This document shows, piece after piece, positions 5,436 through 24,535 of a stretch of 64,000 nucleotides of DNA; the first letter of the stretch is position 1; each line of letters opens with the position of its first letter. The position numbers and the translations under genes were made by a program. This DNA comes from Desulfatiglandales bacterium (GTDB lineage Bacteria > Desulfobacterota > DSM-4660 > Desulfatiglandales > Desulfatiglandaceae): assembly GCA_963666345.1 (NCBI GenBank), contig OY762721.1, forward strand, positions 2,848,001 to 2,912,000, given 5' to 3'. The notes below the pieces were generated by a model. It was not told the origin of the DNA. It worked only from the letters and a program-made list of their open reading frames with translations, and did not search any database.

Positions 5436-6476
5436 ATGGGAAAAAAAAGTGTATCGATCACAGCATTGTTTGTAGCACTGCTGTTTGCTTTCGGTCTGAT
5501 GAGCGCCGTGACGGCTGCTGCGGCTGATATCAAAAAACCTAATGACTTCCCCACAAGAAAAATTGAATGGAACCTCTGGTATGGACCGGGAGGCGGGACG
5601 GATATCTTTTCAAGGACTATCGGAATACCGGCCAGACGGTATCTCAAACCCGCACCCCTCGTAATAGTAAATATTCCCGGTGCATCCGGTGCAAACGGAA
5701 TGATCTACACTATGGAACAGCCGGCCGACGGATATTCGATAACCTCAATAGGAAACGATCTGCCCATAAACGATGTGCAGAAACGTGCCAAATTCGAAGG
5801 GAAGGCCCTTACTATTGACGATTTTGAGCCGATTATCCGTTGCCAGTACGATACTGCGACCATCCAGGTAAACAGCAAAAAGAGCAAGACCAAAGGCTCG
5901 GCATTCAAGGATGTAAAGGAATTTGTCGACTACGCAAAGAAAAATCCAAACAAGGTAATTATAGGAATCACCGGTTCTGCGGGATATGACGAGGTAGTCC
6001 TTTCCATGTGGCTCAATGCGGCAGGTATTACTGCCAAGGTCGTGCCTTATGATTCTGCGGGAAAGTGCCATGCAGCGTTGCTGGGCGGGCATGTCGATGC
6101 CATGTTTGAAGAGTTCGGCCCTACCGTTTCCCTCCTTGAGGGGGGACAGCTAAAGGCAATCCTTGTCTTCAAAGAAGAAAGGGTCAAGGATAAACGATTT
6201 GCCGACGTGCCCTGTTCCGTGGAACTCGGTTGGGATGTCACCATCGGCAGGTGGCGCGGTGTAGGCTGCAAAAAGGGGACCCCGCCAGAAAGAATCGAGT
6301 TCCTCCACCAGGTTTTCAAAAAGGCCATGGACCATTCAATATACAAAAACCTGGAAAAGGCTAATCTCCTTGATATCCGAGTAGGCTACATGGGACCGGC
6401 AGAACTTAAAGAGGCAATCAAGAAGGAGAAGGTGGTTTTTGAAAAGGTCCTCAAACAACTGGGTTATGTGAAATAA
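5436..6476 (+). CDS. tctC: Tripartite tricarboxylate transporter substrate-binding protein
   Basis: Signal peptide; GPGGGTD..R, NIPGASG, PADGY, LLGGHVD motifs. Confidence 0.92.
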   Translation: MGKKSVSITALFVALLFAFGLMSAVTAAAADIKKPNDFPTRKIEWNLWYGPGGGTDIFSRTIGIPARRYLKPAPLVIVNIPGASGANGMIYTMEQPADGYSITSIGNDLPINDVQKRAKFEGKALTIDDFEPIIRCQYDTATIQVNSKKSKTKGSAFKDVKEFVDYAKKNPNKVIIGITGSAGYDEVVLSMWLNAAGITAKVVPYDSAGKCHAALLGGHVDAMFEEFGPTVSLLEGGQLKAILVFKEERVKDKRFADVPCSVELGWDVTIGRWRGVGCKKGTPPERIEFLHQVFKKAMDHSIYKNLEKANLLDIRVGYMGPAELKEAIKKEKVVFEKVLKQLGYVK

Positions 6477-6510
6477 TCCGGCATAGTCCTGTTTGTTAAA
6501 TCCAATCAGA

Positions 6511-6535
6511 TCCTGAGGGCCAGGCGCCCTCAGGA
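6511..6535 (+). promoter_or_regulatory. Intercistronic hairpin after tctC (probable mRNA stabiliser)
   Basis: TCCTGAGGGC-CAGGC-GCCCTCAGGA, 10-bp stem. Confidence 0.45.
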
Positions 6536-6553
6536 CCCTAAAAGGGAACAGTT

Positions 6554-7072
6554 ATGTTTGGAAATCTATTGATGAGTCTTTCCGTGCTGGCAGGGTCTAT
6601 TTTCATGTATTACAAGGCCACCCAGCTCAGACAAATGCAGACGCAGGGCTATGAGTCGGTAGGGCCCGATTCCTGGCCGAAACTTATCTTGATATGCCTT
6701 ATCGCCCTGGGTGGTTATCTGAGTATCAAATATGCAGTGAAATTAGCGAAAAGCAGGGGTTCTTCAGAAAACGAAATCCCCAATCCTCCGGAACAGGGTG
6801 AAGGGAAGGAGGGTTGGATAAGGATAGGTATTACGACCCTTTTCATCGTGCTCTATATCTACCTCCTTAAGCCCCTGGGATTTATTGTTGCAAGCCCGCT
6901 TTTTATCATCGCAATGATGCTCTATATCAATCCCAATAAAAAGAGGATCATACCTGCAAGTGTCTTGGGTATCATGGTAATTATCTATCTGCTTTTCGGA
7001 AAACTTCTTTATATCCCCCTTCCCAAGGGAAGCGGTGTTTTTAGGCAGGTAAGCATTCTGCTTGGACTTTAG
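6554..7072 (+). CDS. tctB: TTT small membrane subunit
   Basis: GPDSWP motif, hydrophobic helices, LGFIVAS, LYIPLPKG. Confidence 0.88.
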   Translation: MFGNLLMSLSVLAGSIFMYYKATQLRQMQTQGYESVGPDSWPKLILICLIALGGYLSIKYAVKLAKSRGSSENEIPNPPEQGEGKEGWIRIGITTLFIVLYIYLLKPLGFIVASPLFIIAMMLYINPNKKRIIPASVLGIMVIIYLLFGKLLYIPLPKGSGVFRQVSILLGL

Positions 7073-7217
7073 TTTGTTGAAAAATCTGCTTTCTTCGACT
7101 GTTGAAACGTCTGGAAATATTAGTATGAAAATATACCCGTCAAGAATCTTAAGAGATTCCATCATTATGGGGAGATAGAGACGGAAAGGTGTTAACTTCC
7201 GTATGTAAGGAGATACG

Positions 7218-8714
7218 ATGTTAGACTACTGGGTAAGTGGTTTGTTTACAGCTATACAGCCGGGCAATCTTCTAGTCCTTGCCATTGGGACCTCTCTTGG
7301 GATACTATCAGGTGGTATCCCTGGGATAAGCGGGACAATGGCCATTGCTCTTGCCGTGCCGGTTACTTATACGATGGGTCCGGACAAGGCCTTGTTTCTT
7401 CTTGTATCACTTTATGCATCCTCTGTATATGCAGGATCCATAAGTGGAATCCTGTTCAGGACACCAGGCGCGCCGGAAGGAGCCGCTGCGACCCTGGACG
7501 GTCATATGATGACCAAAAAAGGTCTGGCCGGTGAGGCCTTGGGATGGGATATTGCAAGTTCGGTAACAGGGGGTATCTTCGGCACTATTGTGCTGGCCCT
7601 CGTTGCACCGCAGCTTGCCAAGGTTGCCCTTCAATTCGGTCCTCCCGAATATTTTGCCCTGGCATTCCTGGGTTTGAGCGTTGTCAGCAGCCTCGGTACA
7701 AAAAATACTGCCAAGGCCCTTGTCTCCGTTCTTATCGGTCTTATGGTTGCAACCGTTGGGATTGACAAAATTTCAGGCTTCAACCGATTTACCTTCGGTA
7801 CCAACACCCTTCTCGGGGGGATAAATTTTATTCCTACCATAATTGGACTTTTTGCTGTTGCCGAAGTTTTAAACAGGCTCAAGGAACAGCGGCAGATGGA
7901 GGGCATTCGGGCAAAGGCAAGGGCAAAACTTCCCAAATTAAAGGCCATGTGGAAACGGAAATGGCTGTATGCCAGATCGGCATGTATCGGCGCCTTTATC
8001 GGGATCCTTCCCGGTGTGGGTGCGACAACTGCTTCCTTTGTGGGTTTAAGTGAGGCGGTGCGATGGTCCAAGGAGCCGGAGAAATACGGCACAGGCATTC
8101 CTGAAGGGATAGCAGCGCCCGAAACGGCCAACAATGCCGCCTGCAGTGGCGCCATGGTGCCGCTTCTTACTATGGGCATCCCCGGAAGTGCCGCGACGGC
8201 ACTGATGCTGGGGGCTCTTTTAATCCACGGTCTGAAACCGGGGCCGCTACTTTTTCTTCAGCAGCCAAAACTGGTTTATTCTATATTCGTTGCCATGTTC
8301 CTAGCTAATGTACTTATCATATTCTTTGCCAAGGGTTTTATAAGGTATTTTTCAAAGATAATAGAGCTTCCCTACAACATACTGGGGCCGGGAATCATCA
8401 TCTTCTGCATAGGCGGCGTGTTTGCCATAAGGAACAACTTCGGCGATATCTGGATTATGATGGCGTTTGCCGTAGCCGGGGTCTTCATGGAAAAATATGA
8501 CTATCCTCTCGCCCCCCTTATCCTGGGCGTAGTGCTCGGCCCCATTGCCGAGGAAAACCTTCGCCAGGCCATGATTATCTCGGGAGGTGATTATTCGGTC
8601 TTTTTCAGCACCCCCATATCTATCTCTCTCATGGTGGTTGGAATAATGTCGTTATTTTCCCAGCAGATCAGGTTTCTCTTTAAGATGTCGTTCAAGAGAG
8701 GGAAAAGTGCGTGA
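7218..8714 (+). CDS. tctA: TTT large permease
   Basis: GGIPG, TPGAP..AATLDG, APETANNA, GIPGS, PGP motifs. Confidence 0.93.
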   Translation: MLDYWVSGLFTAIQPGNLLVLAIGTSLGILSGGIPGISGTMAIALAVPVTYTMGPDKALFLLVSLYASSVYAGSISGILFRTPGAPEGAAATLDGHMMTKKGLAGEALGWDIASSVTGGIFGTIVLALVAPQLAKVALQFGPPEYFALAFLGLSVVSSLGTKNTAKALVSVLIGLMVATVGIDKISGFNRFTFGTNTLLGGINFIPTIIGLFAVAEVLNRLKEQRQMEGIRAKARAKLPKLKAMWKRKWLYARSACIGAFIGILPGVGATTASFVGLSEAVRWSKEPEKYGTGIPEGIAAPETANNAACSGAMVPLLTMGIPGSAATALMLGALLIHGLKPGPLLFLQQPKLVYSIFVAMFLANVLIIFFAKGFIRYFSKIIELPYNILGPGIIIFCIGGVFAIRNNFGDIWIMMAFAVAGVFMEKYDYPLAPLILGVVLGPIAEENLRQAMIISGGDYSVFFSTPISISLMVVGIMSLFSQQIRFLFKMSFKRGKSA

Positions 8715-8786
8715 ATACCTTTTAAATGGGCAAAAATATAGACGGGGATCAGCTCGTTAATGTGAAACGGAAATTAAGGGGATATT

Positions 8787-9941
8787 ATGAATCTGTCACA
8801 CAGGGAAAGGGTCCTTAAAGCGGTAAACCACCAAAAACCGGACAGGGTCCCAAGGGATCTGGGAGGGGCGTTTACATCGAGTATTGCAAGTGTGGCCTAT
8901 GAAAACCTAGCCGATTTTCTTGGCCTTGATCTTGAAACAAGACTGATGCGAAAATGGGCACGTGTAGTTCATCCGGATGAGAAGATCCTCCGGCATTTTG
9001 ATATTGACACAAGGATGGTCGTTCCCAGATATGATGAAGGTTGGAACGAATACTGGAAAATTGCGCCGGTTGAAAATGAAGATGCATACATCGATGAGTG
9101 GGGCATCAAATGGAGCAGGCCGGAATCAAAGATGGGCCCGTATTTTATGACCACTCATCCGTTGGCTGATATCGAAAGTGTTGATGAACTGGAGAATTTC
9201 ATCTGGCCTGATCCTGAAGACCCGGCCCGCTATGAAGGTCTTGAGGAACAGGCTAGACGGCTTAAAAACGAGACTGATTATGCCGTAATAGGGGTTTTTC
9301 CACGGCCCATAGTGTCTCTGAGTCAGTTTATGAGAGGGTATGAAAAATGGTTTCTTGATTTTATGATGAATCGGGAACTCCTAGAGGCAATCATGGATAT
9401 CATAGTGGAGACCAATCTCAGAATAGGGAAAAATATCCTCGACAGAATAGGGAAATACATAGATCTTGCTTTTTTCCATGACGATCTGGCTACCCAGCAA
9501 AGCCTTATGGTCTCACCGGAGCACTATCGGGAGATAATAAAACCTCGTCATAAGAAACTCTTCGACCTTGTAAAAACCCATAGTGATGCTAAGATTATAT
9601 ACCATACGGACGGTGCGGTATTTCCGATCCTTGAGGATTTTATCGAAATAGGGGTAGACGCCCTCAATCCGGTGCAGACATCGGCCCAGGGCATGGATGG
9701 GAAGGCCCTGAGCAGTAGTTTCGGGGACAGGCTTTGCTTCTGGGGGGCGATTGAAAGCCAAAAGGTGCTGCCAACAGGCACACCCGAGGAAGTGTTTGAG
9801 GAGGTAAAAAGACAGATTTCCGATCTGGGAAAAAATGGCAATTACGTTCTCGGTGCCTGCCACAATATCCAGGACGATGTGTCGCCCGAAAATGTTATCG
9901 CCATGTTTGAGGCTGCAGATAGATTCGGTATCTATGATTGA
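8787..9941 (+). CDS. Uroporphyrinogen decarboxylase / MtaA-CmuA superfamily protein
   Basis: RERVLKAVNHQKPDRVP, DEWG, DDLATQ, HTDG, LNPVQ, FWGAI, CHNIQ. Confidence 0.85.
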   Translation: MNLSHRERVLKAVNHQKPDRVPRDLGGAFTSSIASVAYENLADFLGLDLETRLMRKWARVVHPDEKILRHFDIDTRMVVPRYDEGWNEYWKIAPVENEDAYIDEWGIKWSRPESKMGPYFMTTHPLADIESVDELENFIWPDPEDPARYEGLEEQARRLKNETDYAVIGVFPRPIVSLSQFMRGYEKWFLDFMMNRELLEAIMDIIVETNLRIGKNILDRIGKYIDLAFFHDDLATQQSLMVSPEHYREIIKPRHKKLFDLVKTHSDAKIIYHTDGAVFPILEDFIEIGVDALNPVQTSAQGMDGKALSSSFGDRLCFWGAIESQKVLPTGTPEEVFEEVKRQISDLGKNGNYVLGACHNIQDDVSPENVIAMFEAADRFGIYD

Positions 9942-9974
9942 GCCTATTATAAATAAGGAGGATTACCTGTTTAA

Positions 9975-10232
9975 ATGGCTTTTATTCCCACTGTTGATAA
10001 AGAAAAGTGCAAAGGCTGTGAAGAGTGTGTTGATATATGCAGCCCAGAGGTGTTCGAGATGCGCGGCGGAAAGGCCGAGGCGGTGAATAAGGACAGATGC
10101 GTCGGCTGTGAAAGCTGTGTGGAGGTGTGTGAAAACGACGCCATTACCGTGACCGATACGAGACATAAATTGTCTGACCAGTGTGCCTTCCTGTTCAGGG
10201 AGATCCTTGCAGAGGACGAGATGACCGGGTGA
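9975..10232 (+). CDS. 2x[4Fe-4S] ferredoxin with C-terminal extension
   Basis: CKGCEECVDICS and CVGCESCVEVCE. Confidence 0.88.
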   Translation: MAFIPTVDKEKCKGCEECVDICSPEVFEMRGGKAEAVNKDRCVGCESCVEVCENDAITVTDTRHKLSDQCAFLFREILAEDEMTG

Positions 10233-10294
10233 GGGCAGGTCCTGTCCCGGCAGAGCCCGAACAAAAAGCATGTAAGACGAAGACGGAAAAGGGA

Positions 10295-11455
10295 TTACCT
10301 CCCGTATTCATCAACCAGCCCCTTGAATATATCAAGCACCCTCTGAAGGTCCCTTCTGCTGGTGCCGAAGGTGGATATCTTCATTGATTTGGTAAGTCCA
10401 TGTTTTAGGCCGAAGATGTCGTTTTTTTTAAGCTCATTGTAAAGGAAGGCCCTCTTTTTGGGATGCACCTTTGAGATTTCATAGAATATATCCGTAATGA
10501 ACATCATGAGGTCGTGGTTGTGGGGCTTTTCCCCCATCTGGACGCAGCCCAAATTTTCGAGTTCCGATGAAAACCACCTGGCCTTTTCCACCTCCCCGTC
10601 CCAGTGCCTTACCCTTTCCACGACATCCGGAAAAGATGCCATGAGCGTAATCAGAGGGGTTCCCCTTACGGAACATCCCAGGCACTCAAGTTCCTTTCCC
10701 TTATTGGTGGGAGACTCCTGGCAGACAAGGTCTTCCCACTTCTTGTTGAGGCCCAGAACACCTATTGGACCGGCTGACGCCATGCTCTTGTGTCCGCTGC
10801 AGACAATGAAATCGGCGCCTATTTCGTTCATGTTTACAGGCATCCTGCCTACCGCATACGCGGCGTTCAGAAGAAAGGGAACCTCGTACTCCTGTGCAAT
10901 TTCACCAAGGCGACGGGCATTTGGAAGATTGCCCACATTCCCGTCCGGGTAGGTCAGCAAAAGAAGAGAGGGGCGGTGTTCCTTTATCAGTGGTATGTAA
11001 TCCTCCACGTCGATCAATCTTCTGTCATCATCTGAATTGGGAACCTTTACGATCTCAAGCCCTGCCCGCTGCGCGGCCACATCGGTTGAATAATGTCTGT
11101 TTCTGTCAACGACAATAACATCACCCGGTTTTGTAACGGAATGAATGACCATGAATTTTCCTTCACGGGCCCCATGGGTTATGCGGGTGGTGTCGGCGCC
11201 TATGAAGGCAGGCAGATCATTGAAGACAAATTCAGAGATAGGGGGATTCGATATCTTTTCAAGTGTACCTTTACAGTGATCACACACGGAGTAGCCGTCC
11301 CCGAATTCCTCAAGCGCCCTTCGGGCGGAAGGAGTGAGACGGGAGCCGGTCTGAAGCGGGTTTATGATTATACTTTCCCTGTGCTTTCTGGTGAGGTTTC
11401 CATATTTGTTCCTGAGTTTTTCCACATCGAGTGTTTTTTCAACTGCGTCTGCCAT
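10295..11455 (-). CDS. pscS: Sep-tRNA:Cys-tRNA synthase (SepCysS)
   Basis: INPLQTG, GDGYSVCDHC, GAREGK, HYS, PDGNVGN, SGHKSMA (PLP lysine), LGCSVRG, PHNHDL. Confidence 0.93.
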   Translation of the reverse strand: MADAVEKTLDVEKLRNKYGNLTRKHRESIIINPLQTGSRLTPSARRALEEFGDGYSVCDHCKGTLEKISNPPISEFVFNDLPAFIGADTTRITHGAREGKFMVIHSVTKPGDVIVVDRNRHYSTDVAAQRAGLEIVKVPNSDDDRRLIDVEDYIPLIKEHRPSLLLLTYPDGNVGNLPNARRLGEIAQEYEVPFLLNAAYAVGRMPVNMNEIGADFIVCSGHKSMASAGPIGVLGLNKKWEDLVCQESPTNKGKELECLGCSVRGTPLITLMASFPDVVERVRHWDGEVEKARWFSSELENLGCVQMGEKPHNHDLMMFITDIFYEISKVHPKKRAFLYNELKKNDIFGLKHGLTKSMKISTFGTSRRDLQRVLDIFKGLVDEYGR

Positions 11456-11475
11456 CTCTGCGTCCCTTCTAATAC

Positions 11476-12996
11476 CTATTTCCTCTCGTATGTCACGCTC
11501 AGAAATATAGGTCCTTTTACCATGGTTTTCTTGTGTTCTCCCGTCATGTGCTCCTTTATCTTCCTGGGCAACTGCAGGTTTATGTCGCCCAAGGTCTTTG
11601 CCATCCTCGTCCGGAACAGCTCGCTTTTTTGGCCTTTTTCAAATGCCTCTTCAATCTTTGCCGCCATTCCGTGTGAGATTCCCTGAATATAGCTGAAAAG
11701 CGCGTTGTTCTCCCCGCCTTCAAGTTGACTGAGGATGTTTCCGTCTTCAATATAGACCTCATTGAATGTGGCCGGGCCAACCAGCCTTTTGTTTTCCTCT
11801 TTTTCAATTACCTTGATAACCATCTCATCATCCTCGTAAGCGATGAATTCGCATGGTGAAGCCGCGTCTCTGTTCTTGCGGACCGAAGCCTCAATCGCCC
11901 CGGCTATATTTTTCCCTCTTTCAGTGGTGGGAAAATCGATATATATGAGCGATTCTTCGGCAGATTCATCAGAGTAGTTGAGTGCCCCGAATTGAGGGAA
12001 GACAAGTTCTCTTATGTCGGAGTAACCTTTTGTGACCATCGTAAGCCTTTCGATTCCGAACCCCGCATTGAATACGGGATATTTGATTCCGAAGTTGGCC
12101 AGGGAAATGGGAGAATACATGCCTATGTCTCCAATTTCGAGCCATTCGCCTTTCCACTCGGCAAAGACCTCTTCCTCAAGGTCCTTGGCGTAATACTTGG
12201 ATGTGGCCTTTTTCCGCTCGAACCTGGCATCGCTGAATCCGAGTTCAAGAAGGAACCGGCGGGTTATCTTTTTCCCAGCCTCAAGTGACATGTTAGGGTC
12301 CATCACTACCATTGAGGCCGAATTATGAACCCTGAGATGTCCTTTGTCCTCCCGCTGTTCGTTCCTGTACCTGAGACCTGCGGAGAAAAGGGCGATGGGA
12401 TAGTTGGACGTGTCCTGCAGGGCCGCCAGCGTATGGTACCATGTGCCTGTCATATGTGTCCTCAGGGTCATGTTTGTCGGCTGCGGGGTCAACTGCTTGA
12501 ATTCGGGAAAACAGCTTGAGAGAATCTGGGTGGCCTGTTCCATCTCGATGTCTAACTGTTTGACGAGCTCCTCAATGAAATCGTCTCCCTCTATCTCACC
12601 CTTTTTATATGATCTCAGGATATCTTGCAGTATTTCAGAATCAAATTCGCCTATGATGGATTCAATCTGATGTATTTTATCATAGCTTAGTCCAATATCG
12701 GGTCTGGGCAGCTTTGCCAGATAAAATGCCCTGTCCAGGATGACGGGGGATTCCGGACCGTACTGTTTGTATACATCCTCATCAGATATTATGGTCCTGT
12801 TCTCCATTTCTGAAAAGCCCATTTTGGAGAGGATTTCTCTGCACTCCTGAACGCATTCCCTTAACGGGTGCAAGGTTCCCTTCTGCTTTATGTTGACAGA
12901 GGTGTTGCGTGGGATAAGATCTGCTGTCTCAATCCAAGCCTTCTCAAAGTTTCCCTTTGATTTTTTTATTATCGTCTTAATAGGTAGTTCAGCCAC
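11476..12996 (-). CDS. sepS: O-phosphoserine-tRNA(Cys) ligase (SepRS)
   Basis: DVYKQYGPESPVILDRAFYLA.LPRPDIG, YKKGEIEGDD, TLRTHMT..W, RNEQRED, SKYY, GMYSPISL..FGI.YPVFNAGFGIERL. Confidence 0.93.
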   Translation of the reverse strand: MAELPIKTIIKKSKGNFEKAWIETADLIPRNTSVNIKQKGTLHPLRECVQECREILSKMGFSEMENRTIISDEDVYKQYGPESPVILDRAFYLAKLPRPDIGLSYDKIHQIESIIGEFDSEILQDILRSYKKGEIEGDDFIEELVKQLDIEMEQATQILSSCFPEFKQLTPQPTNMTLRTHMTGTWYHTLAALQDTSNYPIALFSAGLRYRNEQREDKGHLRVHNSASMVVMDPNMSLEAGKKITRRFLLELGFSDARFERKKATSKYYAKDLEEEVFAEWKGEWLEIGDIGMYSPISLANFGIKYPVFNAGFGIERLTMVTKGYSDIRELVFPQFGALNYSDESAEESLIYIDFPTTERGKNIAGAIEASVRKNRDAASPCEFIAYEDDEMVIKVIEKEENKRLVGPATFNEVYIEDGNILSQLEGGENNALFSYIQGISHGMAAKIEEAFEKGQKSELFRTRMAKTLGDINLQLPRKIKEHMTGEHKKTMVKGPIFLSVTYERK

Positions 12997-13469
12997 TTTA
13001 TGTTACCTTTCCGTTAATTGATGAATGTAACCGGATTCTGTTTTGAAAACCTCATATGAATATTCTTTTAATGTGTTTGTCTTATGTAAAAATCAGTATG
13101 CATAAAAAGCTGGTATTCAACATCATCGGAAAAATTTCATCAGGATATTTTCATTACATTGAAAAATTGTCAACAGCCCCGGATAGTTTTTTAAAAAAAG
13201 TGATGATCTTTTTCGTCTCGATAGATCTAGAAAATAAGGTGAAATAATGTGCCGTGTCAAGGAATATAGGATAACCCTGATCCTTCATTAATTTATCGTC
13301 TTTTCATATTATGGCATGTCTCAGAGATTTTATCGCAACAGGGCAAAAAACCTCATCGGTTCTGAAAAAAGGCCTGAATGATGAAACGGATCTTACGTCA
13401 ATTGAATGTGTTAACCGGCCGGTAAGGATATCGTAATCGGCTTTACCGGTGAAACGGATATCCCGGAAA

Positions 13470-14759
13470 TCAAATCATTTCCCTCTGCTGGCCTGTCGAC
13501 TCGATTACACTGTTCCACAATCTTCCTCTCGGATCTATCTTTTTCCTCTTTGATACTGCCAGCGGGATGGGGACATGGGTATAGTGACCGCTCCAATATC
13601 CCACCACCATGTTGGTTCTTCCGGCCATGCCCGCGTGTACCGCATTGTGCCCCAGTAATAGACAGAACACGGAGTCATGCGGGTTGGCGGGCATGCTTCT
13701 GATGGTGTAGCTGGGATCGATATACTTAAGATCCACCTTTATATCCAGACTCCGGAAATATGCCTTGATTTTGTCCCTGAGAAATATCCCTATATCCTGA
13801 AGCCTGATATTTCCGGAAGGGTCGTGACCTGAATCCTTTCCGACCATGTCCTGCCCCGCGCCTTCCGCAACAACAATCACCGCGTGCTTTCTGAGGAACA
13901 GCCGCTCTCTCAGTTGTTCAAACAGGATATCCAGGCTGAAGGGGACCTCGGGGATGAGACAGAAATTTACCTCACTGTTTGCAAGTGTGGCATTTGCGGC
14001 GATAAAACCCGATTCCCTGCCCATGAGTTTGACCAGGCCGATTCCGTTTCTGGCTGCAACCGCCTCGGCATGGGCACAGTAGATTGATGTCTTGGCCTCT
14101 GCTACTGCCGTTTCAAAGCCGAAGGACTTGTTCAGAAAAGATATGTCATTGTCAATGGTTTTTGGAATTCCTATCACGGAGATTTTCAGATTTCTTTCCC
14201 TGATCTCATCGGATATCGCCTGTGCCCCTCTCAGGGTGCCGTCCCCTCCGATGGCGAAAAGGATGCCGATATTCATCCTTTCAAGCGTATCCACCATCTC
14301 CGGGATATCCTGGGGGCCCCTTGAAGTCCCAAGTATGGTTCCTCCCTGCTGGTGAATATCCAAAACCTCGGAGGGTGTAAGTTCCAGGGGTTCGTGGCTG
14401 TACTTCGGAGACAGCCCCTCATAGCCGTAGCGGAAACCGAACACTGTCTTTACCCTATAATGGTACAAGAGACTGAGGACTATCGATCTGATCACGTCGT
14501 TTAGTCCCGGGCAAAGCCCTCCGCAGGTTACTATCCCGCATTTGAGCTTTGAGGCGTCAAAATAGATATGGCGCCTGGGGCCTGCCATTTCAAAAGAGGG
14601 GAGCGGCTTCCCATTACCGATGATTCGCTTCAAATCTTTTAGATTCGAGTAGTATAATACACGCTCATCTTCGTCTACAAACTGGGCTCCCTGCATGGGC
14701 GAGTCTATACGGCATGGTCCGAGTGTCTGTATCTCAAAATCCAGGCTCTCTGTTTTCAT
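13470..14759 (-). CDS. pfkA: ATP-dependent 6-phosphofructokinase
   Basis: TCGGLCPGLN, GGTILGTSRG, GGDGT, PKTIDND, MGR; start set at MKTESL after GGGGG RBS. Confidence 0.92.
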   Translation of the reverse strand: MKTESLDFEIQTLGPCRIDSPMQGAQFVDEDERVLYYSNLKDLKRIIGNGKPLPSFEMAGPRRHIYFDASKLKCGIVTCGGLCPGLNDVIRSIVLSLLYHYRVKTVFGFRYGYEGLSPKYSHEPLELTPSEVLDIHQQGGTILGTSRGPQDIPEMVDTLERMNIGILFAIGGDGTLRGAQAISDEIRERNLKISVIGIPKTIDNDISFLNKSFGFETAVAEAKTSIYCAHAEAVAARNGIGLVKLMGRESGFIAANATLANSEVNFCLIPEVPFSLDILFEQLRERLFLRKHAVIVVAEGAGQDMVGKDSGHDPSGNIRLQDIGIFLRDKIKAYFRSLDIKVDLKYIDPSYTIRSMPANPHDSVFCLLLGHNAVHAGMAGRTNMVVGYWSGHYTHVPIPLAVSKRKKIDPRGRLWNSVIESTGQQREMI

Positions 14760-15040
14760 GAAAAGGCCCCCTAGATCCGGTTTAGTTTTTTGAAAGGTAA
14801 TGTCTTCGATTCTTTCTGTCTGGAAAATGCGTCTCAAGCCGGTTAAATCAAAATTGAACTCATATTTGACGCGAAATTTACATCCCTGTTATCTGATATC
14901 GCCTATTGGAGAAGAATAGGCAAAGGTGCCTCCGGTGTCAAGAATCCGGTATCGCCCGGTTTTGACTTTTTCCCTGTCAATAAGTTATCCTTACGGATAG
15001 CTGTGAATCTAATCTTTTAAGAGAGGTTCGAAATCAGAAT

Positions 15041-16456
15041 ATGAGATATCTGGACATAAAGACAAAGATTATATGCACGATAGGTCCTTCCTGTGAAACC
15101 CCCGAAGCCATAAGAGAACTTATAGTCAACGGCATGAGTATGGCAAGGCTCAATTTTTCTCACGGGAAAAGAGAGGAGCATGCCAGCAAGATTTCCATAA
15201 TCAGGGATAGCGCAAAAAGGCTTGGAAGGCCTGTGGCGATACTCCAGGATCTGGCAGGGCCGAAGATAAGGGTGGGAACGATACCCAAGCCCGGGATAAA
15301 GCTTGATCCCGGAAAAGAACTTGTACTCACCACCGAAGATATCATAGGGGATAAAGACAGGGTGCATGTAAATTATAAGCCGCTTCCTGAAGAAGTGAGT
15401 CAGGGGGACAGGGTGCTACTTGCAGACGGCCTCATGGAACTCAGGGTAAGGGATGTAAAGGCCGGTGAGATCTATTGTGAGGTGATTACGGGCGGTGTGC
15501 TTACGTCCCACAAGGGGTTGAATCTTCCTTCCGGCACCATAAAGGCGCCTTCCATGACGGAAAAGGATAAGGTGGATCTTCTTTTCGGCCTGGCTCACGA
15601 CGTAGATTATGTGGGTGTTTCATTCGTTCGACAGGCGGATGATATTATACGGGTTCGCCGAATAATAAAAGAGGGGGGGAAAGATATCCCTATTATCGCG
15701 AAGATTGAAAAACATGAGGCGATAAAGAACCTTGATGATTTAATGGAGGCGGCCGACGGAATAATGGTCGCAAGGGGGGATCTTGGCGTGGAGATCCCGC
15801 TTGAGGAAGTCCCTCTTCTTCAAAAGACTCTGATCAGAAAGGCCAACTATATGGGAAAACCGGTAATTACGGCTACCCAGATGTTGAGGTCGATGGTCGA
15901 TTCGCCCAGACCGACCAGGGCGGAGGCCAATGATGTGGCCAACGCCGTTTTGGACGGAACTGACGCGGTGATGCTTTCGGAGGAAACCGCCATCGGCAGG
16001 TATCCGGTAGAGGCTGTCGGATTTATGGCCAAAATAATAAGAAACGCTGAAAAAGGATTCCCCCACCGGAAGTATCTTGAGATGACACCGAGAAAAGATG
16101 TGGCCGAATCGGTGGCTCACGCTGCCTGTATGCTTGCGGATCATCTTGATGCCGAGGCGATCGTTCCCACGACCGAGTCTGGAACAACCGCCATACATGT
16201 GTCGAGATTCAGGCCGAAAAGTACCGTTCTGGCCCTTTCGCCCAATGAGGAAATAGTCAGGCGCCTGTGCCTTTTCTGGGGATGCATCCCCATGCTGCTT
16301 CAGGACACCAAGGATACCGATGATATGATAGAAAAGGTCTCAAGCGCTGCAATCGCATCAGAGCTGGTCTCTAAAGGTGATACCGTTGTTATAACCGCAG
16401 GTCATCCGATATGGGTCGCCGGCACTACCAATATGGTACGCGTGAAACGCCTATAG
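15041..16456 (+). CDS. pyk: Pyruvate kinase
   Basis: TKIICTIGP, RLNFSHG, AKIE, MVARGDLG, TRAEANDV, MLSEETA. Confidence 0.97.
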   Translation: MRYLDIKTKIICTIGPSCETPEAIRELIVNGMSMARLNFSHGKREEHASKISIIRDSAKRLGRPVAILQDLAGPKIRVGTIPKPGIKLDPGKELVLTTEDIIGDKDRVHVNYKPLPEEVSQGDRVLLADGLMELRVRDVKAGEIYCEVITGGVLTSHKGLNLPSGTIKAPSMTEKDKVDLLFGLAHDVDYVGVSFVRQADDIIRVRRIIKEGGKDIPIIAKIEKHEAIKNLDDLMEAADGIMVARGDLGVEIPLEEVPLLQKTLIRKANYMGKPVITATQMLRSMVDSPRPTRAEANDVANAVLDGTDAVMLSEETAIGRYPVEAVGFMAKIIRNAEKGFPHRKYLEMTPRKDVAESVAHAACMLADHLDAEAIVPTTESGTTAIHVSRFRPKSTVLALSPNEEIVRRLCLFWGCIPMLLQDTKDTDDMIEKVSSAAIASELVSKGDTVVITAGHPIWVAGTTNMVRVKRL

Positions 16457-16457
16457 T

Positions 16458-16590
16458 TAGTGATCGTCCATGAATCAAGATTTATGGACTCACGCTATCA
16501 GCTGTCAGCTGTCAGCAAAACATTCGGAATATCAATTTATTTGCTGCTTGCTGAAAGCAGTATCCGGGTGTGAGCACTGGATTGGCACTA
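16458..16590. repeat. Family B miniature repeat element with TCAGCTG/TCAGCTA heptamers, between convergent pyk and argF
   Basis: Ends TAGTGATCGTCCA...TGGATTGGCACTA; reverse complement aligns with 58331-58488. Confidence 0.7.
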
Positions 16591-16625
16591 GTTATATGTA
16601 AAGCATCCAGGATGCAGAGGACCTA

Positions 16626-17603
16626 TTAAACCCTGCCCAGAGTGGAAATCATGACCGCCTTTATTGTGTGTACCCTGTTTTCCGCCTGCTCAAATACAAG
16701 GGAATTCTTCCCCTCGAACACCTCCTCGGCTGTTTCACATATATCAGGAAACTGCCTTGCCATGGACGTATCCCGATTGTGAAAACTCGGCAGGCAGTGA
16801 AGGAATATACAATCCGGATTTCCGGTATTATCAAGGGTTTCCCGGGTCACTCGAAACGGCTTTAGCAGTGCGATCCTTTCGGCGATTTTATCCTCCTCAC
16901 CCATCGAGGCCCATACGTCGGTATAGATGACATCGGCATCTTTTATCCCCTGATTTATCTGAGAGGTTATGAGGATTTTACCACCGCTTTTTTCTGCAAA
17001 CCGATCGGCGCTTTCTATTATATCACTTTCAGGTTGAAGCTCTTTCGCTGAGACCAGCCTGAAGTCCATTCCCATCTTTGCGGCACCGATAAGAAGAGAG
17101 TTTGCCATGTTGCTCCTGCCGTCTCCCATGTAGGCCAGTCTGATACCTTTTATGCGGCCTTTCGCCTCAAGGATTGTCATAAGATCGGCAAGCGCCTGCG
17201 TGGGGTGGAACCTGTCGGTAAGCCCGTTCCATACGGGCACTCCGGCAAACGCAGCCAGTTCTTCAACCGTGGAATGCTGGTAGCCCCTGAATTCAATGCC
17301 GTCAAACATCCTGCCGAGGACCCTTGCAGTGTCTTTGACCGATTCCTTTTTGCCCAGCTGGATGTCTCCTTTTCCAAGGTACTCGGCATGAGCGCCTTCA
17401 TCGTTGCTTGCTATGATAAAGGCACATCTGGTTCTGGTGGACGGTTTTTCAAAGATAAGGGAGATATTCAAGCCCTGCAGCCTGTTTTTCCTTATGCCCG
17501 CCTTTTTTTCCTTTTTAAGAGAAATGGAAAGATCAAGCAGAAATCTTATCTCCTCCTGGCTGTAATCAATAAGGGTCAATAAATTCTTGTTTTTTAAGTC
17601 CAT
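16626..17603 (-). CDS. argF: Ornithine carbamoyltransferase
   Basis: FEKPSTRTR, HPTQ, DVWASMG, HCLP, AENR. Confidence 0.95.
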   Translation of the reverse strand: MDLKNKNLLTLIDYSQEEIRFLLDLSISLKKEKKAGIRKNRLQGLNISLIFEKPSTRTRCAFIIASNDEGAHAEYLGKGDIQLGKKESVKDTARVLGRMFDGIEFRGYQHSTVEELAAFAGVPVWNGLTDRFHPTQALADLMTILEAKGRIKGIRLAYMGDGRSNMANSLLIGAAKMGMDFRLVSAKELQPESDIIESADRFAEKSGGKILITSQINQGIKDADVIYTDVWASMGEEDKIAERIALLKPFRVTRETLDNTGNPDCIFLHCLPSFHNRDTSMARQFPDICETAEEVFEGKNSLVFEQAENRVHTIKAVMISTLGRV

Positions 17604-17663
17604 GTTGTTTTGTCTCCTTGAGCAAAGGGAACCGGGGCTTGGACATTTTTCCGGAAAAGGGGC

Positions 17664-18893
17664 TTACTCCTCCGTGTCCATTTCGATCCGGCCCTGAGCC
17701 TCTTCAGGAAATTGTTTCAAAGGGATATGCCTGGCCTTTCTCAATTCCTCAATCTTGTTTAACGGCCTGTCCAGCTGCCGCCTTCTTGTGGAAGTCAGAA
17801 TTTCATATTCCTTGAGTGAGTCCCTTATCCTGTTGCCAAGGACCTCCATCTTTTTTGTAAATGTCTCCCACTGTTTTCGGAATGCCCCCAACAGGGAAAG
17901 TATCTCGTTTGATGTCTGTTCAAGCGCAAAATTTTCAACTGCCTGCCGTATCACCGCAAGAATGGCAAAAAGCGTGAAAGGAGAGCAGATTATTACCCTC
18001 ATTTTCATCCCTAAATCGATAATGGAACTGTCCTGTTCGTTTATAAAAGTATATACCTGTTCATTGGGTATGAAAAGCAATACATAGTCGAGCGTATTCT
18101 GCTCGGGATTTATGTATTCCCGCGTTGTGACCTCCTTTATCCTCGCTTTTACGTCCTTGAAGAAGTTGTTGAGAAGCGTCATTTTTTGATGGGGTGAAGT
18201 TTCGTCCAGATATTTCAAGTAGTTGTCAAGAGGAAACTTCACGTCCATATTCAGTTTATGGTCTTTCGGAAGAAAAAAGGTGAAATCGGGTCTCGTGCCT
18301 ATCCCCTCGATGGTCCTCTGTTTCTGATAGTTTATATTTTCAATGAATCCGCAGATCCTTAATACGTCCTCCGCCATCCTCTCTCCCCACTGCCCACGGT
18401 ACTTGCTGCTGGCGAAGGCCTCCCGGAGGGCGTTTGTGGTTTTCATGAGCGATGTGGTCTGTTCATTCGTATTTTTCAACTGGTTTGAAAGTTCCCCGAA
18501 TTTATTGACCCTGTCCCTTTCAAGCTCCTTGACCAGTAGTGAGATATTCTCGAATTCCGATGCCATGCGTTTGAGTTGTTCATCTATGAGCCCCTTTTTT
18601 GCCTCCATATCCTTGGTGCTGATTTCTCTTTCAGATTCAAATTTCTCCTTGGCAAGCTTCAGGAATTCCTCCGTGGATTTGGAAAGGGCATCAAGGGACA
18701 AATTGCCGAATATATCCTTTATATTGGAGGTGATCGCCTCCAGGTTTTCCCTGCGCTGTGATTCGGTTTCATTCAGCATTTCCCTGGCGATTTGGTAGGA
18801 GGCCTTTGAATGAAAAAGCCTGAATATGAAAGCAACGCCTATGCCGATCAAAAAACCGGCCAGAAAAGGGAAAAAGGTATTAACCCAACCCAT
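17664..18893 (-). CDS. rmuC: DNA recombination protein RmuC
   Basis: N-terminal TM and coiled coil, RGQWGE, RPD, DVKFP, FIPNE. Confidence 0.92.
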   Translation of the reverse strand: MGWVNTFFPFLAGFLIGIGVAFIFRLFHSKASYQIAREMLNETESQRRENLEAITSNIKDIFGNLSLDALSKSTEEFLKLAKEKFESEREISTKDMEAKKGLIDEQLKRMASEFENISLLVKELERDRVNKFGELSNQLKNTNEQTTSLMKTTNALREAFASSKYRGQWGERMAEDVLRICGFIENINYQKQRTIEGIGTRPDFTFFLPKDHKLNMDVKFPLDNYLKYLDETSPHQKMTLLNNFFKDVKARIKEVTTREYINPEQNTLDYVLLFIPNEQVYTFINEQDSSIIDLGMKMRVIICSPFTLFAILAVIRQAVENFALEQTSNEILSLLGAFRKQWETFTKKMEVLGNRIRDSLKEYEILTSTRRRQLDRPLNKIEELRKARHIPLKQFPEEAQGRIEMDTEE

Positions 18894-19263
18894 AAAACTC
18901 TCCGATTTGTTTCATCATAGAAGACCTGGTTTACTTAGCCGGCCGACGGCCGAGCGCCGGCAGCGTAAATACGGAAAAAGGCCATTGCCGGATGAGCCTC
19001 AATCCGGTCCCGAGTGCAGTAAATTTATTAGAGCAGTGCTGCCTTGTCAACGTAAATGGGATCAAAGGTGACTTGACCTGCAATTTCAAATGCCTTAATC
19101 ATAACGTTAAGCCATACGATGTGAACATGCGCTGTTAACGATTCAACCTGTAAGGGGAAATGCGTTCTTCCCTTTCTGTTCCGTCTTTTACCATACAAGA
19201 CATAAACTGTCCGATTGTTTCAAGTGCGGGCCCTTTTCCTGGATTTTTATCAAGGGGGTGATT

Positions 19264-20406
19264 ATGCGTCCACTGGATGGCATCAAGGTTGTTGAGATGG
19301 CGGGTCTTGCCCCATCTCCATACTGCGGAATGATCCTGGGTGATTTTGGCGCCGATGTGATTGTCGTTGACAGGCTTTCGGGTGCGGCTCCCGAGGTCCC
19401 CAACGTTATGAAAAAAAATCCTTTTGACCGGGGGAAAAGATCGATGCGGATCGACCTCAAAAAGGGCCCGGGAGTAAAGATCTTGAAAAGGATCGTCCGT
19501 GATTCAGATGTCCTGCTTGAGGGATACAGACCGGGCGTGATGGAGGCCATCGGTCTGGGGCCGAAAGAGGCGCATGAGACAAATCCGGGCCTTGTCTATG
19601 CCAGACTGACAGGCTGGGGACAGTCCGGACCCTATTCAGGCATGGCGGGTCATGACATAAACTACATTGCCGTGTCCGGGGCCTTGTCCCTTTTCAGGAG
19701 AAAAGGTGAAAGGCCTCTGCCGCCATGCAATCTCCTGGGTGATTTTGCCGGGGGCGGATTGCTATGCAGCCTCGGAATAGTGTTGGCGATCCTTGAAAAA
19801 AACAGGTCAGGCAAGGGACAGGTAATCGATTCAGCCATGGTGGAGGGGGCTGCGAATCTCTCCACTTTTTTTTACGGCCTTACGGCAAACGGGCTTATGT
19901 CTCTCGATATAGGAACGAACATGCTGGACAGCGGCGCCCCGTATTACCAGGTATACGAAACTGCGGACGGAAAATATATGTCAGTGGGAGCAATAGAGAC
20001 CAGGTTTTACGAAAACCTGCTTCAAGGCCTGGGATTGGAATCAACCTGCCTGCCGGAAAAGAACGACAAGAAAAAATGGCCGGAGGTCAAAGAGCTTTTC
20101 TCACGTGTATTCAAGACAAAAACTAGGCGGCAATGGGAAGGCATCTTTATCGGAAAGGATGCATGCGTAGCTCCGGTTCTGGAGTTAAGCGAGGTGAATG
20201 ATGACAAGCACAACCGCGAGAGAAACACCTTCGTAGATGTTGATGGATCTGTGCAGCCGTCGCCTGCGCCGAGGCTTTCAAGGACTCCCGCCGTGGCTTC
20301 AGACACCAATTTGCCCAGAGGCGCTCATACCGAAGAGATCCTCCTGGAGCTGGGGTACAAGGATGAGGAGCTGAAGGAGTTGTTTGAAACCGGGATCGTT
20401 GAATAA
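19264..20406 (+). CDS. CaiB/BaiF family III CoA-transferase / alpha-methylacyl-CoA racemase-like
   Basis: PLDGIKVVEMAG, DRGKRS, EGYRPGVME, GHDINY, GDFAGGG. Confidence 0.92.
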   Translation: MRPLDGIKVVEMAGLAPSPYCGMILGDFGADVIVVDRLSGAAPEVPNVMKKNPFDRGKRSMRIDLKKGPGVKILKRIVRDSDVLLEGYRPGVMEAIGLGPKEAHETNPGLVYARLTGWGQSGPYSGMAGHDINYIAVSGALSLFRRKGERPLPPCNLLGDFAGGGLLCSLGIVLAILEKNRSGKGQVIDSAMVEGAANLSTFFYGLTANGLMSLDIGTNMLDSGAPYYQVYETADGKYMSVGAIETRFYENLLQGLGLESTCLPEKNDKKKWPEVKELFSRVFKTKTRRQWEGIFIGKDACVAPVLELSEVNDDKHNRERNTFVDVDGSVQPSPAPRLSRTPAVASDTNLPRGAHTEEILLELGYKDEELKELFETGIVE

Positions 20407-20421
20407 GGTGCCGGCCCTCTT

Positions 20422-20919
20422 TTATCCGTTGTCAATCGCGCAGTCTGAAGTATCTCCGGACAGTTTGTGAACTGCGTGATAAAGGGCCGGAAGCACTACC
20501 GCCAGATTGTCCCTTACCCCGCCCGGACTTCCAGGCAGATTGATTATGAGGCAGCTCTTTCTTACCCCCGCCATTGCTCTTGATATCATGGCATGGGGCG
20601 TTATTTTAAGACTTGCAGCCCGCATGGCTTCAGCCATGCCGGGGATCTCATAGTCGATTACTTCCATCATGGCCTGGGGCGTGACATCGGTGGGGCTGAG
20701 GCCCGTTCCCCCTGTAGTTACTATCAGAGAAAGCCCCTCATGGTCCACCCATCCTTTAAGGGTGTCTTCAATAATAGCCTGATCATCAGGCACGATTTCC
20801 TGTTTTACAACAGGAAATCGATTTTCCTCCAGGATGCCACAGGCGATCTTTCCGCTTTCATCAGGCCGAAGACCCCTTGATCCTTTGTCACTTATGGTCA
20901 AAACCCCGGATTTTGTCAT
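20422..20919 (-). CDS. mog: Molybdopterin adenylyltransferase (MogA/MoaB)
   Basis: LTISDKG..G.R.DESG, TTGGTG..PTDVTP, NLPGSP. Confidence 0.88.
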   Translation of the reverse strand: MTKSGVLTISDKGSRGLRPDESGKIACGILEENRFPVVKQEIVPDDQAIIEDTLKGWVDHEGLSLIVTTGGTGLSPTDVTPQAMMEVIDYEIPGMAEAMRAASLKITPHAMISRAMAGVRKSCLIINLPGSPGGVRDNLAVVLPALYHAVHKLSGDTSDCAIDNG

Positions 20920-21105
20920 TTGAATCCAAAAAAGATTATATGTTGGCAGGGAGCCTTTTAAAAAAAACAAAGCGACTGAAGTGAATTAAATTAAGGCCAC
21001 TTCAAATTGAGATGTCGTCCAATTATCCTTAAAAGCAGAGGCCTTTCACGCTGGTGAACTTTTTTAAGGTATTCCAGATCCCGGTGCCCTCTATACAGAG
21101 GGGTA

Positions 21106-21139
21106 AATAAATGCCCGGTAATATCTCCGGGCATTTATT
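21106..21139 (-). terminator. Intrinsic terminator downstream of EF-G-like gene
   Basis: AATAAATGCCCGG...CCGGGCATTTATT inverted repeat 8 bp after the stop. Confidence 0.65.
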
Positions 21140-21147
21140 ATTGAGTG

Positions 21148-23581: not shown

Positions 23582-24535
23582 TTGATATGGGAGAGGCTTG
23601 TTTTGTTTCTAAGTGAGCTCATAGCGGTCTTTATCAGTTATCTTAAGTATCAGAGGGGATTTTCCCTTCACACGCTCAGAAACTATCAGACAGACCTGAA
23701 ACAGTTTCAGTTGTTTCTTGAAGGGGGCATGGAAAACGGGCAAGGAAAAAAACATGCTGAAATCAGGATAGAATCCATTGATGCCGATAAGATAAGGGAA
23801 TATCTGGGAGGACTATACGGATACCTGAGCAAGTCCACTATTTCCAGGAAACTATCCTCTCTGAGGTCCTTTTTTCATTTTCTTGAGAAAAAAGGACTTA
23901 ACGGTGGAAACCCGGCAGCCGAAGTCTTATCAACCAAGATCGATAAAAAGGTGCCCAATTATCTGCCTGTCGATGATGTTTTCAGACTCCTGGATAGACC
24001 TGACAGGAATGACCCCCTCGGTCTCAGAGATCTGGCGATTTTGGAAGTTCTATATTCTTGTGGTATAAGGGTAAGTGAGCTTGAATCGCTTGACTTATCA
24101 AGCGTGGATATGGAGGAGCGTGTTGTAAAGGTGCTGGGCAAGGGTAATAAGGAAAGAATCGTGCCGATAGGAAAACGCGCCCTGGATGCTGTAAGGCGGT
24201 ATCTTGATGGAACCGGACATTTGCGGAACCGGCCGAAAAACGGGGAAAGGACGGCAGATGCCCTTTTTATAAACTTTCGGGGAGGAAGGCTGTCGGCCCG
24301 CAGCATAAACCGGATGATCAAAAGATATGCCCTGGAATGCGGTCTGAGTCCTGAAGTCAGCCCTCATTCGATGAGGCATTCCTTTGCCACTCATCTGCTG
24401 GACGGTGGTGCCGACCTGCGTTCGGTTCAGGAATTACTAGGCCATTCAAGCCTTTCCACCACTCAGAAATATACCCACGTAAGCCTTGACAGGCTTATGG
24501 AGGTTTATGACAAGGCGCATCCCAGAAGCAAATAA
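23582..24535 (+). CDS. xerC: Tyrosine recombinase XerC
   Basis: RDLAILEVLYSCGIRVSE, GKGNKER, SPHSMRHSFATH, LGH, TTQKYT; upstream of hslVU. Confidence 0.9.
   Translation: MIWERLVLFLSELIAVFISYLKYQRGFSLHTLRNYQTDLKQFQLFLEGGMENGQGKKHAEIRIESIDADKIREYLGGLYGYLSKSTISRKLSSLRSFFHFLEKKGLNGGNPAAEVLSTKIDKKVPNYLPVDDVFRLLDRPDRNDPLGLRDLAILEVLYSCGIRVSELESLDLSSVDMEERVVKVLGKGNKERIVPIGKRALDAVRRYLDGTGHLRNRPKNGERTADALFINFRGGRLSARSINRMIKRYALECGLSPEVSPHSMRHSFATHLLDGGADLRSVQELLGHSSLSTTQKYTHVSLDRLMEVYDKAHPRSK

Follow-up and report, generated by a model that had tools for sequence, protein, structure and literature searches.

The stretch of DNA analysed here, 64,000 nucleotides of the Desulfatiglandales bacterium assembly GCA_963666345.1 (contig OY762721.1, forward-strand positions 2,848,001 to 2,912,000; hereafter the window, whose numbering is used unless a genome or locus is named), encodes side by side the two enzymes of an archaeal-type route to cysteinyl-tRNA. 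These are O-phosphoseryl-tRNA(Cys) synthetase (SepRS, gene sepS), which would charge tRNA-Cys with O-phosphoserine (Sep), and SepCysS, the Sep-tRNA:Cys-tRNA synthase (gene pscS/sepCysS), a pyridoxal phosphate (PLP) enzyme which would convert the product to Cys-tRNA-Cys. The explanation that we consider probable is that the operon was gained horizontally, that the lineage's two genes for cysteinyl-tRNA synthetase (CysRS) were lost afterwards, and that the indirect route is now the sole source of Cys-tRNA. The SepRS-SepCysS operon itself is already known in bacteria (Mukai 2017 mBio, PMC5424206; Mukai 2022 Front Genet, PMC8762117); what is added here, and is well supported, is a case in which the operon was gained and both CysRS genes then disappeared, although free cysteine is still made.

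Identity of SepRS and SepCysS and structure of the operon

Both genes are on the reverse strand. SepRS is encoded by an open reading frame (ORF) of 506 aa with a GTG start (11476..12996), about 8 nt before which lies the ribosome-binding site GGAAAGG, and SepCysS by an ORF of 386 aa with an ATG start (10295..11455). The 20-bp spacer between them (11456..11475, same strand) carries on inspection an AGAAGGG ribosome-binding site. A consensus scan placed a promoter-like site, TTGACA-18-TATTTT (13231..13260, reverse strand, 10 of 12 matches), about 235 nt upstream of sepS, from which it is separated by an AT-rich leader (12997..13230, reverse strand), and a terminator-like hairpin lies across the sepCysS stop codon (10283..10305, reverse strand), the sole terminator-like site in 9800-13600. 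The two genes are one operon. A search of 9500-15200 against Rfam (E up to 0.1) gave no family match, hence no known leader element. Two marine-sediment metatranscriptome runs contain short, near-identical contigs on both genes, and contigs from RNA libraries terminate at 13220 and 13200, near the promoter-like site, which is a weak hint only; contigs of this kind cannot show transcription, strand or ends.

The assignment of both proteins is clear from profile searches. SepRS scored 431.9 bits (E 3e-129) on the TIGR00470 sepS model, for which the equivalog cut-off is 380.65, and it matched model positions 7-530 of 533, so that it is full length and includes the anticodon-binding domain at its C-terminus; the class II core matched PF01409 (156 bits), and Pfam agreed with the NCBIfam assignments. 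The rival models remained below cut-off (PheS 102.8 bits against 237.45; PylS 32.9 bits), and residues 5-504 of the 506 aligned with Methanocaldococcus jannaschii SepRS (2du7) at 362 bits. SepCysS scored 481.8 bits (E 1.3e-144) on TIGR02539 (equivalog cut-off 365.25) and 421.5 bits against the Archaeoglobus fulgidus enzyme (2e7i), while the cysteine-desulfurase models fell far short (SufS 48 bits against a cut-off of 475.1); its N-terminus begins 22 residues ahead of the first matched model position and holds no additional domain. An earlier sequence-only reading of this stretch had described two intact genes 20 bp apart with all hallmark motifs, and the ORFs, spacer, equivalog scores and conserved residues agree with that description; the grouping with PheRS-alpha or generic PLP enzymes that it had named as a possible refutation was not seen, the PheS and SufS scores being far below their cut-offs.

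Within SepCysS, the PLP lysine K223 and the cysteines C58, C61 and C261, expected to serve as persulfide or Fe-S ligands, align with the corresponding residues of the A. fulgidus enzyme, and all four are invariant in 25 aligned homologues. Within SepRS, the Asn-X-Gly motif is N310-A311-G312, aligned to N-L-G in M. jannaschii SepRS, and N310 and G312 are invariant across 24 aligned homologues. PMC8762117 describes this motif as without exception in genuine SepRS and as changed in SepRS-like genes that have taken on another role. That is of consequence for the possibility that the two proteins do something else, such as charging a different amino acid or acting on tRNA outside translation, as was proposed for degenerate SepRS-like genes in Thermoplasmata and in some putative Deltaproteobacteria. 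We judge this quite improbable here: repurposed homologues have lost the motif that is intact in this SepRS, both proteins score above equivalog cut-offs, SepRS is paired with an intact SepCysS, and the cell would otherwise be without a source of Cys-tRNA. From family membership, then, we infer that the two proteins have the SepRS and SepCysS activities.

Two structural details are shared with enzymes of other bacteria. According to the relevant parts of PMC5424206, SepCysS of bacterial operons is marked, in A. fulgidus numbering, by a missing loop at 144-147 and by having no insertion of 8 residues at 234/235, and the accompanying SepRS is without a helix next to the contact with 1-methylguanosine at tRNA position 37 (m1G37). 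The alignment of our SepCysS to 2e7i has a 4-residue gap exactly at 144-147 and no gap around 234-235, and the anticodon-binding domain of our SepRS is 14 residues shorter than that of M. jannaschii SepRS at the place where those parts of PMC5424206 put the loss of the m1G37-adjacent helix. At the locus, to which the search was confined, SepCysS has neither a gene for SepCysE or SepCysSn immediately ahead of it nor a fused domain of that kind, and the portions of three reports that deal with SepCysE (PMC5424206; PMC8762117; PMC9499178) give it as not found in bacteria. A complex prediction with full-length SepRS and SepCysS chains scored 0.00, which is no evidence either way on direct binding.

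Absence and probable loss of CysRS

The genome to which the window belongs is a single contig of 4,162,108 bp with no N and 48% GC; marker genes put its completeness at 96.7%, and ARAGORN finds 47 tRNA genes and one transfer-messenger RNA gene in it. With the TIGR00435 model the best CysRS score in this genome was 36.6 bits against a cut-off of 340. The same model detected CysRS in 13 of 14 named control genomes, M. jannaschii being the sole miss, and above the cut-off in all 40 relatives sampled (24 of the same family and 16 of the same order). Matches to PF01406 in the window's genome were confined to two open frames of 666 and 954 aa, which were taken to be other class I synthetases without identification by a family search, and tblastn with the CysRS proteins of relatives reached at best E 4.6e-4, at one of these two frames.

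The sites from which CysRS genes have gone can be located. A pair of CysRS genes is found in the majority of the 40 relatives, a canonical one of ~490 aa and a ~780-aa ORF (frames about 770-865 aa). In three relatives the canonical gene stands in the order ispF/GSU2086-family gene, cysS, uvrB (ispF itself was identified in G002); in the window's genome ispF (genome positions 3829611-3830078) and uvrB (3827400-3829382) are 228 bp apart, and cysS is missing between them. The longer copy, a CysM/K-CysRS fusion, is likewise missing between conserved flanks, as judged against one relative (G008). Searches for cysS remnants at both empty sites returned noise only (lowest E 0.09, with 0.5 kb as the space searched).

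The fusion deserves description in its own right. It joins an N-terminal CysM/K-type cysteine synthase to CysRS and was scanned by profile in relative G003 only, where the 777-aa protein (L104:7664-9997, + strand) scored 395.8 bits over its CysRS half and 365 bits over its cysKM half; in G008 (L106:8406-10757, - strand) tblastn gave the same architecture. Such a protein would couple cysteine synthesis to tRNA charging within one chain. The fusion lost here is widespread in the host's order, and a literature search found nothing specific on a CysK/M-CysRS fusion or on a sulfate reducer without CysRS.

Could the operon nevertheless be auxiliary or conditional, as in methanogens that keep both systems, with a CysRS missed because it is too divergent or on an unassembled plasmid? 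Coexistence is common: CysRS was found in 2 of 5 SepRS-bearing bacterial metagenome-assembled genomes (MAGs) tested and not in the other 3, all of these MAGs being incomplete bins. The completeness of the window's genome also falls short of 100%. Set against these points are the two profile searches and the tblastn search with the proteins of close relatives, all negative, the two ancestral chromosomal sites empty between conserved flanks, and the ease with which CysRS is detected in controls and relatives, where it is among the most readily found of families. We therefore regard an auxiliary role as unlikely and favor replacement. Cysteine makes up 1.25% of residues in the long ORFs of the genome and there is a single tRNA-Cys, so Cys-tRNA is needed, and SepRS-SepCysS is its only visible source. 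The pathway thus appears, on the evidence of the genome, to be the only route to Cys-tRNA in this bacterium, and not the alternative route that the sequence-only reading had envisaged.

The genome also contains SelA and tRNA-Sec, and bacterial selenocysteine (Sec) coding is therefore combined with indirect cysteine coding in this bacterium. In bacteria, Sec synthesis is not known to pass through a Sep-tRNA intermediate, so no cross-talk with SepRS-SepCysS is expected. The selA gene (genome positions 3833068-3834435) lies ~3 kb from the empty ispF-uvrB site.

The tRNA-Cys substrate and the supply of cysteine and phosphoserine

The presumed substrate is the only tRNA-Cys that ARAGORN finds in the window and in the whole genome (40408..40483, + strand; GCA anticodon, A37, U73, CCA encoded), and the search for an extra tRNA-Cys that the sequence-only reading had proposed accordingly yielded none. 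In 13 relatives that use CysRS, tRNA-Cys has the same acceptor stem, discriminator and anticodon arm. A compensated pair in the T stem aside, the only places where the window's tRNA-Cys departs from every one of the 13 are two in the D-loop, raw positions 17 and 19, which are U/G instead of G/C, with the G18-G19 register shifted; these changes could be drift after the loss of CysRS or adaptation to SepRS.

A source of phosphoserine is present in SerC (477 bits). Free cysteine can be accounted for by a NifS-CysE-CysK operon, in which CysK scored 449 bits, above its cut-off, and the adjacent serine O-acetyltransferase passed the NF041874 cut-off of 150 with 156 bits but, at 162.5 bits, stayed below the TIGR01172 cut-off of 210.65. 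Since this operon is present, the indirect route is not needed to make cysteine itself, and the de novo cysteine synthesis that had been proposed as a benefit of the pathway is superfluous; the class I methanogen trait, in which the indirect route is the sole cysteine biosynthesis, is not found here. The same early proposal had pointed to a possible new SepRS for genetic code expansion. Its use as such a tool in bacteria is doubtful: since this type of SepRS is without the m1G37 helix and the tRNA-Cys of its host is an ordinary bacterial one with A37 and U73, the enzyme would probably charge a bacterial host's own tRNA-Cys as well.

Distribution, phylogeny and origin of the operon

None of the 40 relatives was found to have SepRS, and a sample of 400 further genomes of the phylum yielded one with it (G116). 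Copies within the window's own species are 98-100% identical; outside it the nearest sequence, P0002, is unlabelled and only 64% identical. The nearest labelled sequences come from Woesearchaeota, Nanoarchaeia and 'Methanosarcinales' MAGs (58-61% identity), ahead of those from Parcubacteria (51-54%) and Dehalococcoidia (50-54%). The relatives of SepCysS rank in the same way, with Woesearchaeota/Nanoarchaeia-labelled sequences at 61-66% and those of the Chloroflexi/Parcubacteria-type operon at 57-60%.

The SepRS tree was built from 74 rows, retained from 140 candidates by a greedy 78%-identity filter, after removal of locus rows whose alignment covered less than 440 residues; support was assessed by the Shimodaira-Hasegawa-like approximate likelihood ratio test (SH-aLRT). 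The window's SepRS groups with P0002 (98) and lies with Woesearchaeota/Nanoarchaeia-labelled rows in a 12-row clade (98-99), apart both from the Chloroflexi, which form a clade of 17 rows (100), and from P0025, a partial Desulfobacterales-labelled sequence; a tree of a hand-picked subset of 42 rows left this outcome unchanged. The SepCysS tree (58 of 107 rows after an 82% filter) is congruent, with a 27-row clade (99) set against Chloroflexi plus Parcubacteria (99). Among 86 related loci examined, 70 hold both genes, and in 63 of these sepS and sepCysS are adjacent, in that order and on one strand, from which it follows that the pair moved as an operon. The best reading, and the one in which the horizontal acquisition suggested from the sequence alone finds its support, is that both genes arrived together, with a DPANN-type pool as the probable source.

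In four of the DPANN-labelled loci (L127:121-7595, L128:4653-13637, L024 and L026) SepRS-SepCysS lies within a conserved larger cluster. Its order is an SDH_alpha-family gene (PF03313), an alpha/beta hydrolase, SepRS and SepCysS, followed in some loci by CoaB (PF04127), a SufC-like ABC ATPase, SufBD and a PALP enzyme. The whole looks like a module for cysteine, iron-sulfur clusters and coenzyme A.

If the operon were instead ancestral in the bacterial lineage and lost everywhere else, one might expect the host-like composition that we observe, and the second SepRS-bearing genome of the phylum, G116, would fit as well. Yet none of the 40 relatives and just one of 400 other genomes of the phylum has it, and the G116 enzyme is of a different type, 41% identical and on the opposite side of the tree. 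The window's ArgG, moreover, is 81% identical to proteins of other Desulfobacterales, whereas SepRS has nothing above 64% outside its own species. We regard vertical inheritance as very improbable, and horizontal gain as the better account of the same facts.

The nearest labelled relatives being archaeal, one might also suspect an assembly chimera or archaeal contamination. The stretch 9000-15000 is present in 13 public runs from 10 studies, four of which were compared in detail by their contigs over the stretch. A 29,112-bp contig from an independent marine-sediment run spans 9970-16500 with 12 differences and bridges both the ferredoxin|SepCysS and the SepRS|6-phosphofructokinase (PFK) junctions; in a second organism-labelled run, under a different organism code, three contigs over 10541-16500 show 4 differences altogether; and over 9970-22996 the window shares 99.89% identity with a 98.6-kb contig of a metagenome, which runs from the ferredoxin gene through SepCysS and SepRS to PFK. 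Both long contigs diverge from the window left of 9970 and are therefore from other strains, independent of this assembly. An assembly chimera at the junctions is excluded, and the junction check that the sequence-only reading had called for has come out in favor of the locus, with two independent long contigs at 99.8-99.9% identity. With host-like codon use and flanks of Desulfobacterales type added, chimerism or contamination is, of all the alternatives, the one to which we give the least credence.

The GC content, the GC content at third codon positions (GC3) and the synonymous codon use of sepS and sepCysS are within the genome norm (GC3 percentile 57-58 and codon-likelihood percentile 80-89, with 1637 genome ORFs of at least 300 aa as baseline). 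The genes look compositionally native, and a composition test of foreign origin is uninformative.

The proposed course of events and its weak points

The course of events that we favor would begin with a Desulfobacterales-type bacterium acquiring the SepRS-SepCysS operon horizontally, as one unit, from a sequence pool now mainly seen in Woesearchaeota/Nanoarchaeia-labelled (DPANN) genomes. The acquired genes would then have turned compositionally native, and two genes would have vanished from the lineage, the canonical cysS from its place between ispF and uvrB, and the CysM/K-CysRS fusion gene. In the present cell, SerC would provide O-phosphoserine, SepRS would ligate it to the genome's one tRNA-Cys, of ordinary bacterial type (GCA, A37, U73), and SepCysS, with PLP, its three conserved cysteines and a sulfide or persulfide donor, would turn Sep-tRNA-Cys into Cys-tRNA-Cys, presumably with no SepCysE-type adaptor involved. 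Free cysteine for other needs would come from CysE-CysK and could not be loaded on tRNA.

A number of points weigh against this account. The trees are quick searches with SH-aLRT support only, and the host labels of the nearest sequences were taken from MAG record titles, with the closest of all, P0002 at 64%, carrying none. Because codon use is host-like, the horizontal origin rests on distribution and trees. The PFK neighborhood is not syntenic in any of 5 relatives and so gives no position for the insertion. A cysS might lie on a plasmid outside the assembly, and completeness is 96.7%; the RNA-library contigs over both genes could be DNA carry-over. The case is one of genome evidence.

Flanking genes and strain variation

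The left neighbor of the operon, convergent with it, is a 2x[4Fe-4S] ferredoxin gene (9975..10232, + strand; Pfam Fer4 families), and the right neighbor is a host gene for ATP-dependent 6-phosphofructokinase (13470..14837, - strand; NF005301 equivalog, 671 bits). The other neighbors are ordinary bacterial genes (pyruvate kinase, ornithine carbamoyltransferase, RmuC, EF-G, hslVU and argB/D/G/H), and ArgG shares 81% identity with proteins whose names give Desulfobacteraceae, Desulfobacterales, Deltaproteobacteria and Desulfococcus. The single integrase-family gene within 20 kb (23582-24535), directly before hslV-hslU, is placed like a XerC-type housekeeping recombinase. The clearly bacterial flanks and the lack of mobile-element marks noted from the sequence alone therefore both stand. 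PFK orthologues (68-72% identical) occur in 12 of 24 family relatives, every one in a different neighborhood, and the five in which synteny was compared have five unrelated neighborhoods, so that no empty insertion site is definable.

Farther to the left, directly after a TctCBA transporter, is a gene for a URO-D family protein (8787-9941, + strand), nearest to MtaA/CmuA-type methylcobamide methyltransferases at 73 bits, far below the cut-off. This gene and part of the Tct transporter make up a strain-variable cassette (6341-9969) that ends at the start of the ferredoxin gene, with a breakpoint at 9970. In two contigs (the 98.6-kb contig, L126, and one from run X3) that are 99.8-99.9% identical to the window right of 9970, the cassette is replaced by a different sequence of similar length, and identity is back to 95% from 6340 leftwards.

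Implications

Tentatively, with confidence somewhat short of even, we suggest that this may be the first bacterial lineage documented, on an organism-named single-contig genome, as having exchanged an essential aminoacyl-tRNA synthetase for a horizontally acquired archaeal-type two-step pathway, with both CysRS genes gone and free-cysteine synthesis kept. Bacterial operons of this type are known almost only from fragmentary metagenome bins, in which it is never possible to demonstrate that CysRS is absent. In the present case a true replacement of a universal synthetase is argued for by a genome in one contig, by syntenic sites found empty and by 40 relatives that all have CysRS. If that is true, cysteine coding would be detached from the pool of free cysteine and would depend instead on the supply of phosphoserine and sulfide. 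The usual explanation, that synthesis of cysteine is what the route is for, does not hold for a bacterium that still produces free cysteine, and the question of which selective force favors the indirect route becomes sharper. Is it a sulfide-rich habitat, a large requirement for iron-sulfur clusters, or the avoidance of free cysteine? The lineage would offer a bacterial model, open to experiment, of the reasons for which cells take the indirect route. If the organism is in culture, it would for the first time allow in vivo work on a bacterial SepRS system, on whether it is essential, how it recognizes tRNA and which sulfur donors it uses.

Comparison with known SepRS-SepCysS systems

Bacterial SepRS-SepCysS operons are recorded, in the parts of the literature that list them, from Chloroflexi, Parcubacteria, 'a putative deltaproteobacterium' and others (PMC5424206; PMC8762117; PMC9499178), and the description of bacterial cases as rare and mainly metagenomic agrees with what the corresponding parts of PMC5424206 and PMC8762117 report. 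The Chloroflexi and Parcubacteria enzymes charge A37 tRNA-Cys with Sep and convert Sep to Cys in vitro, according to the biochemical portion of PMC5424206. Our operon resembles those of Chloroflexi/Dehalococcoidia and Parcubacteria in its two genes, their order and adjacency, the lack of SepCysE beside them, a SepCysS without the 144-147 loop, a SepRS without the m1G37 helix, and an A37 bacterial tRNA-Cys. It differs from them in sequence (50-54% identity for SepRS and 57-60% for SepCysS), in belonging to a separate, well-supported clade in both trees, in its Desulfobacterales-type host, and in the absence of CysRS, which was kept in 2 of 3 Chloroflexi MAGs tested.

To the Woesearchaeota/Nanoarchaeia-labelled (DPANN) clusters the likeness is one of clade, in both trees, and of gene order. 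Unlike those clusters, the window has the two core genes only, set among host glycolysis and arginine genes, and its GC content of 48% contrasts with 31-34% in three DPANN loci.

The tRNA-Thr-ED-SepRS fusion described by Mukai (2022) and found here in G116 (L125, G116:C242:1-2876; 648 aa, followed by a CoaB gene; ED, editing domain) is similar in that a bacterium of the same phylum has SepRS, and no CysRS was found in that MAG, which is 90% complete and 6% contaminated. Unlike ours, the G116 protein carries an N-terminal archaeal ThrRS editing domain (PF08915); since it is fused, 41% identical and in another clade, it represents an independent acquisition.

With the transsulfursome of class I methanogens (M. 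jannaschii SepRS-SepCysE-SepCysS; 5x6b/5x6c) our system would share the two-step chemistry, and it shares the lack of CysRS. It differs from that of M. jannaschii in a SepRS of ~45% identity (judged by eye) with the m1G37-binding helix deleted, in a tRNA with A37, and in having no SepCysE beside the genes. Finally, the methanogen route is the only cysteine biosynthesis of its hosts, whereas the bacterium described here keeps CysE-CysK.

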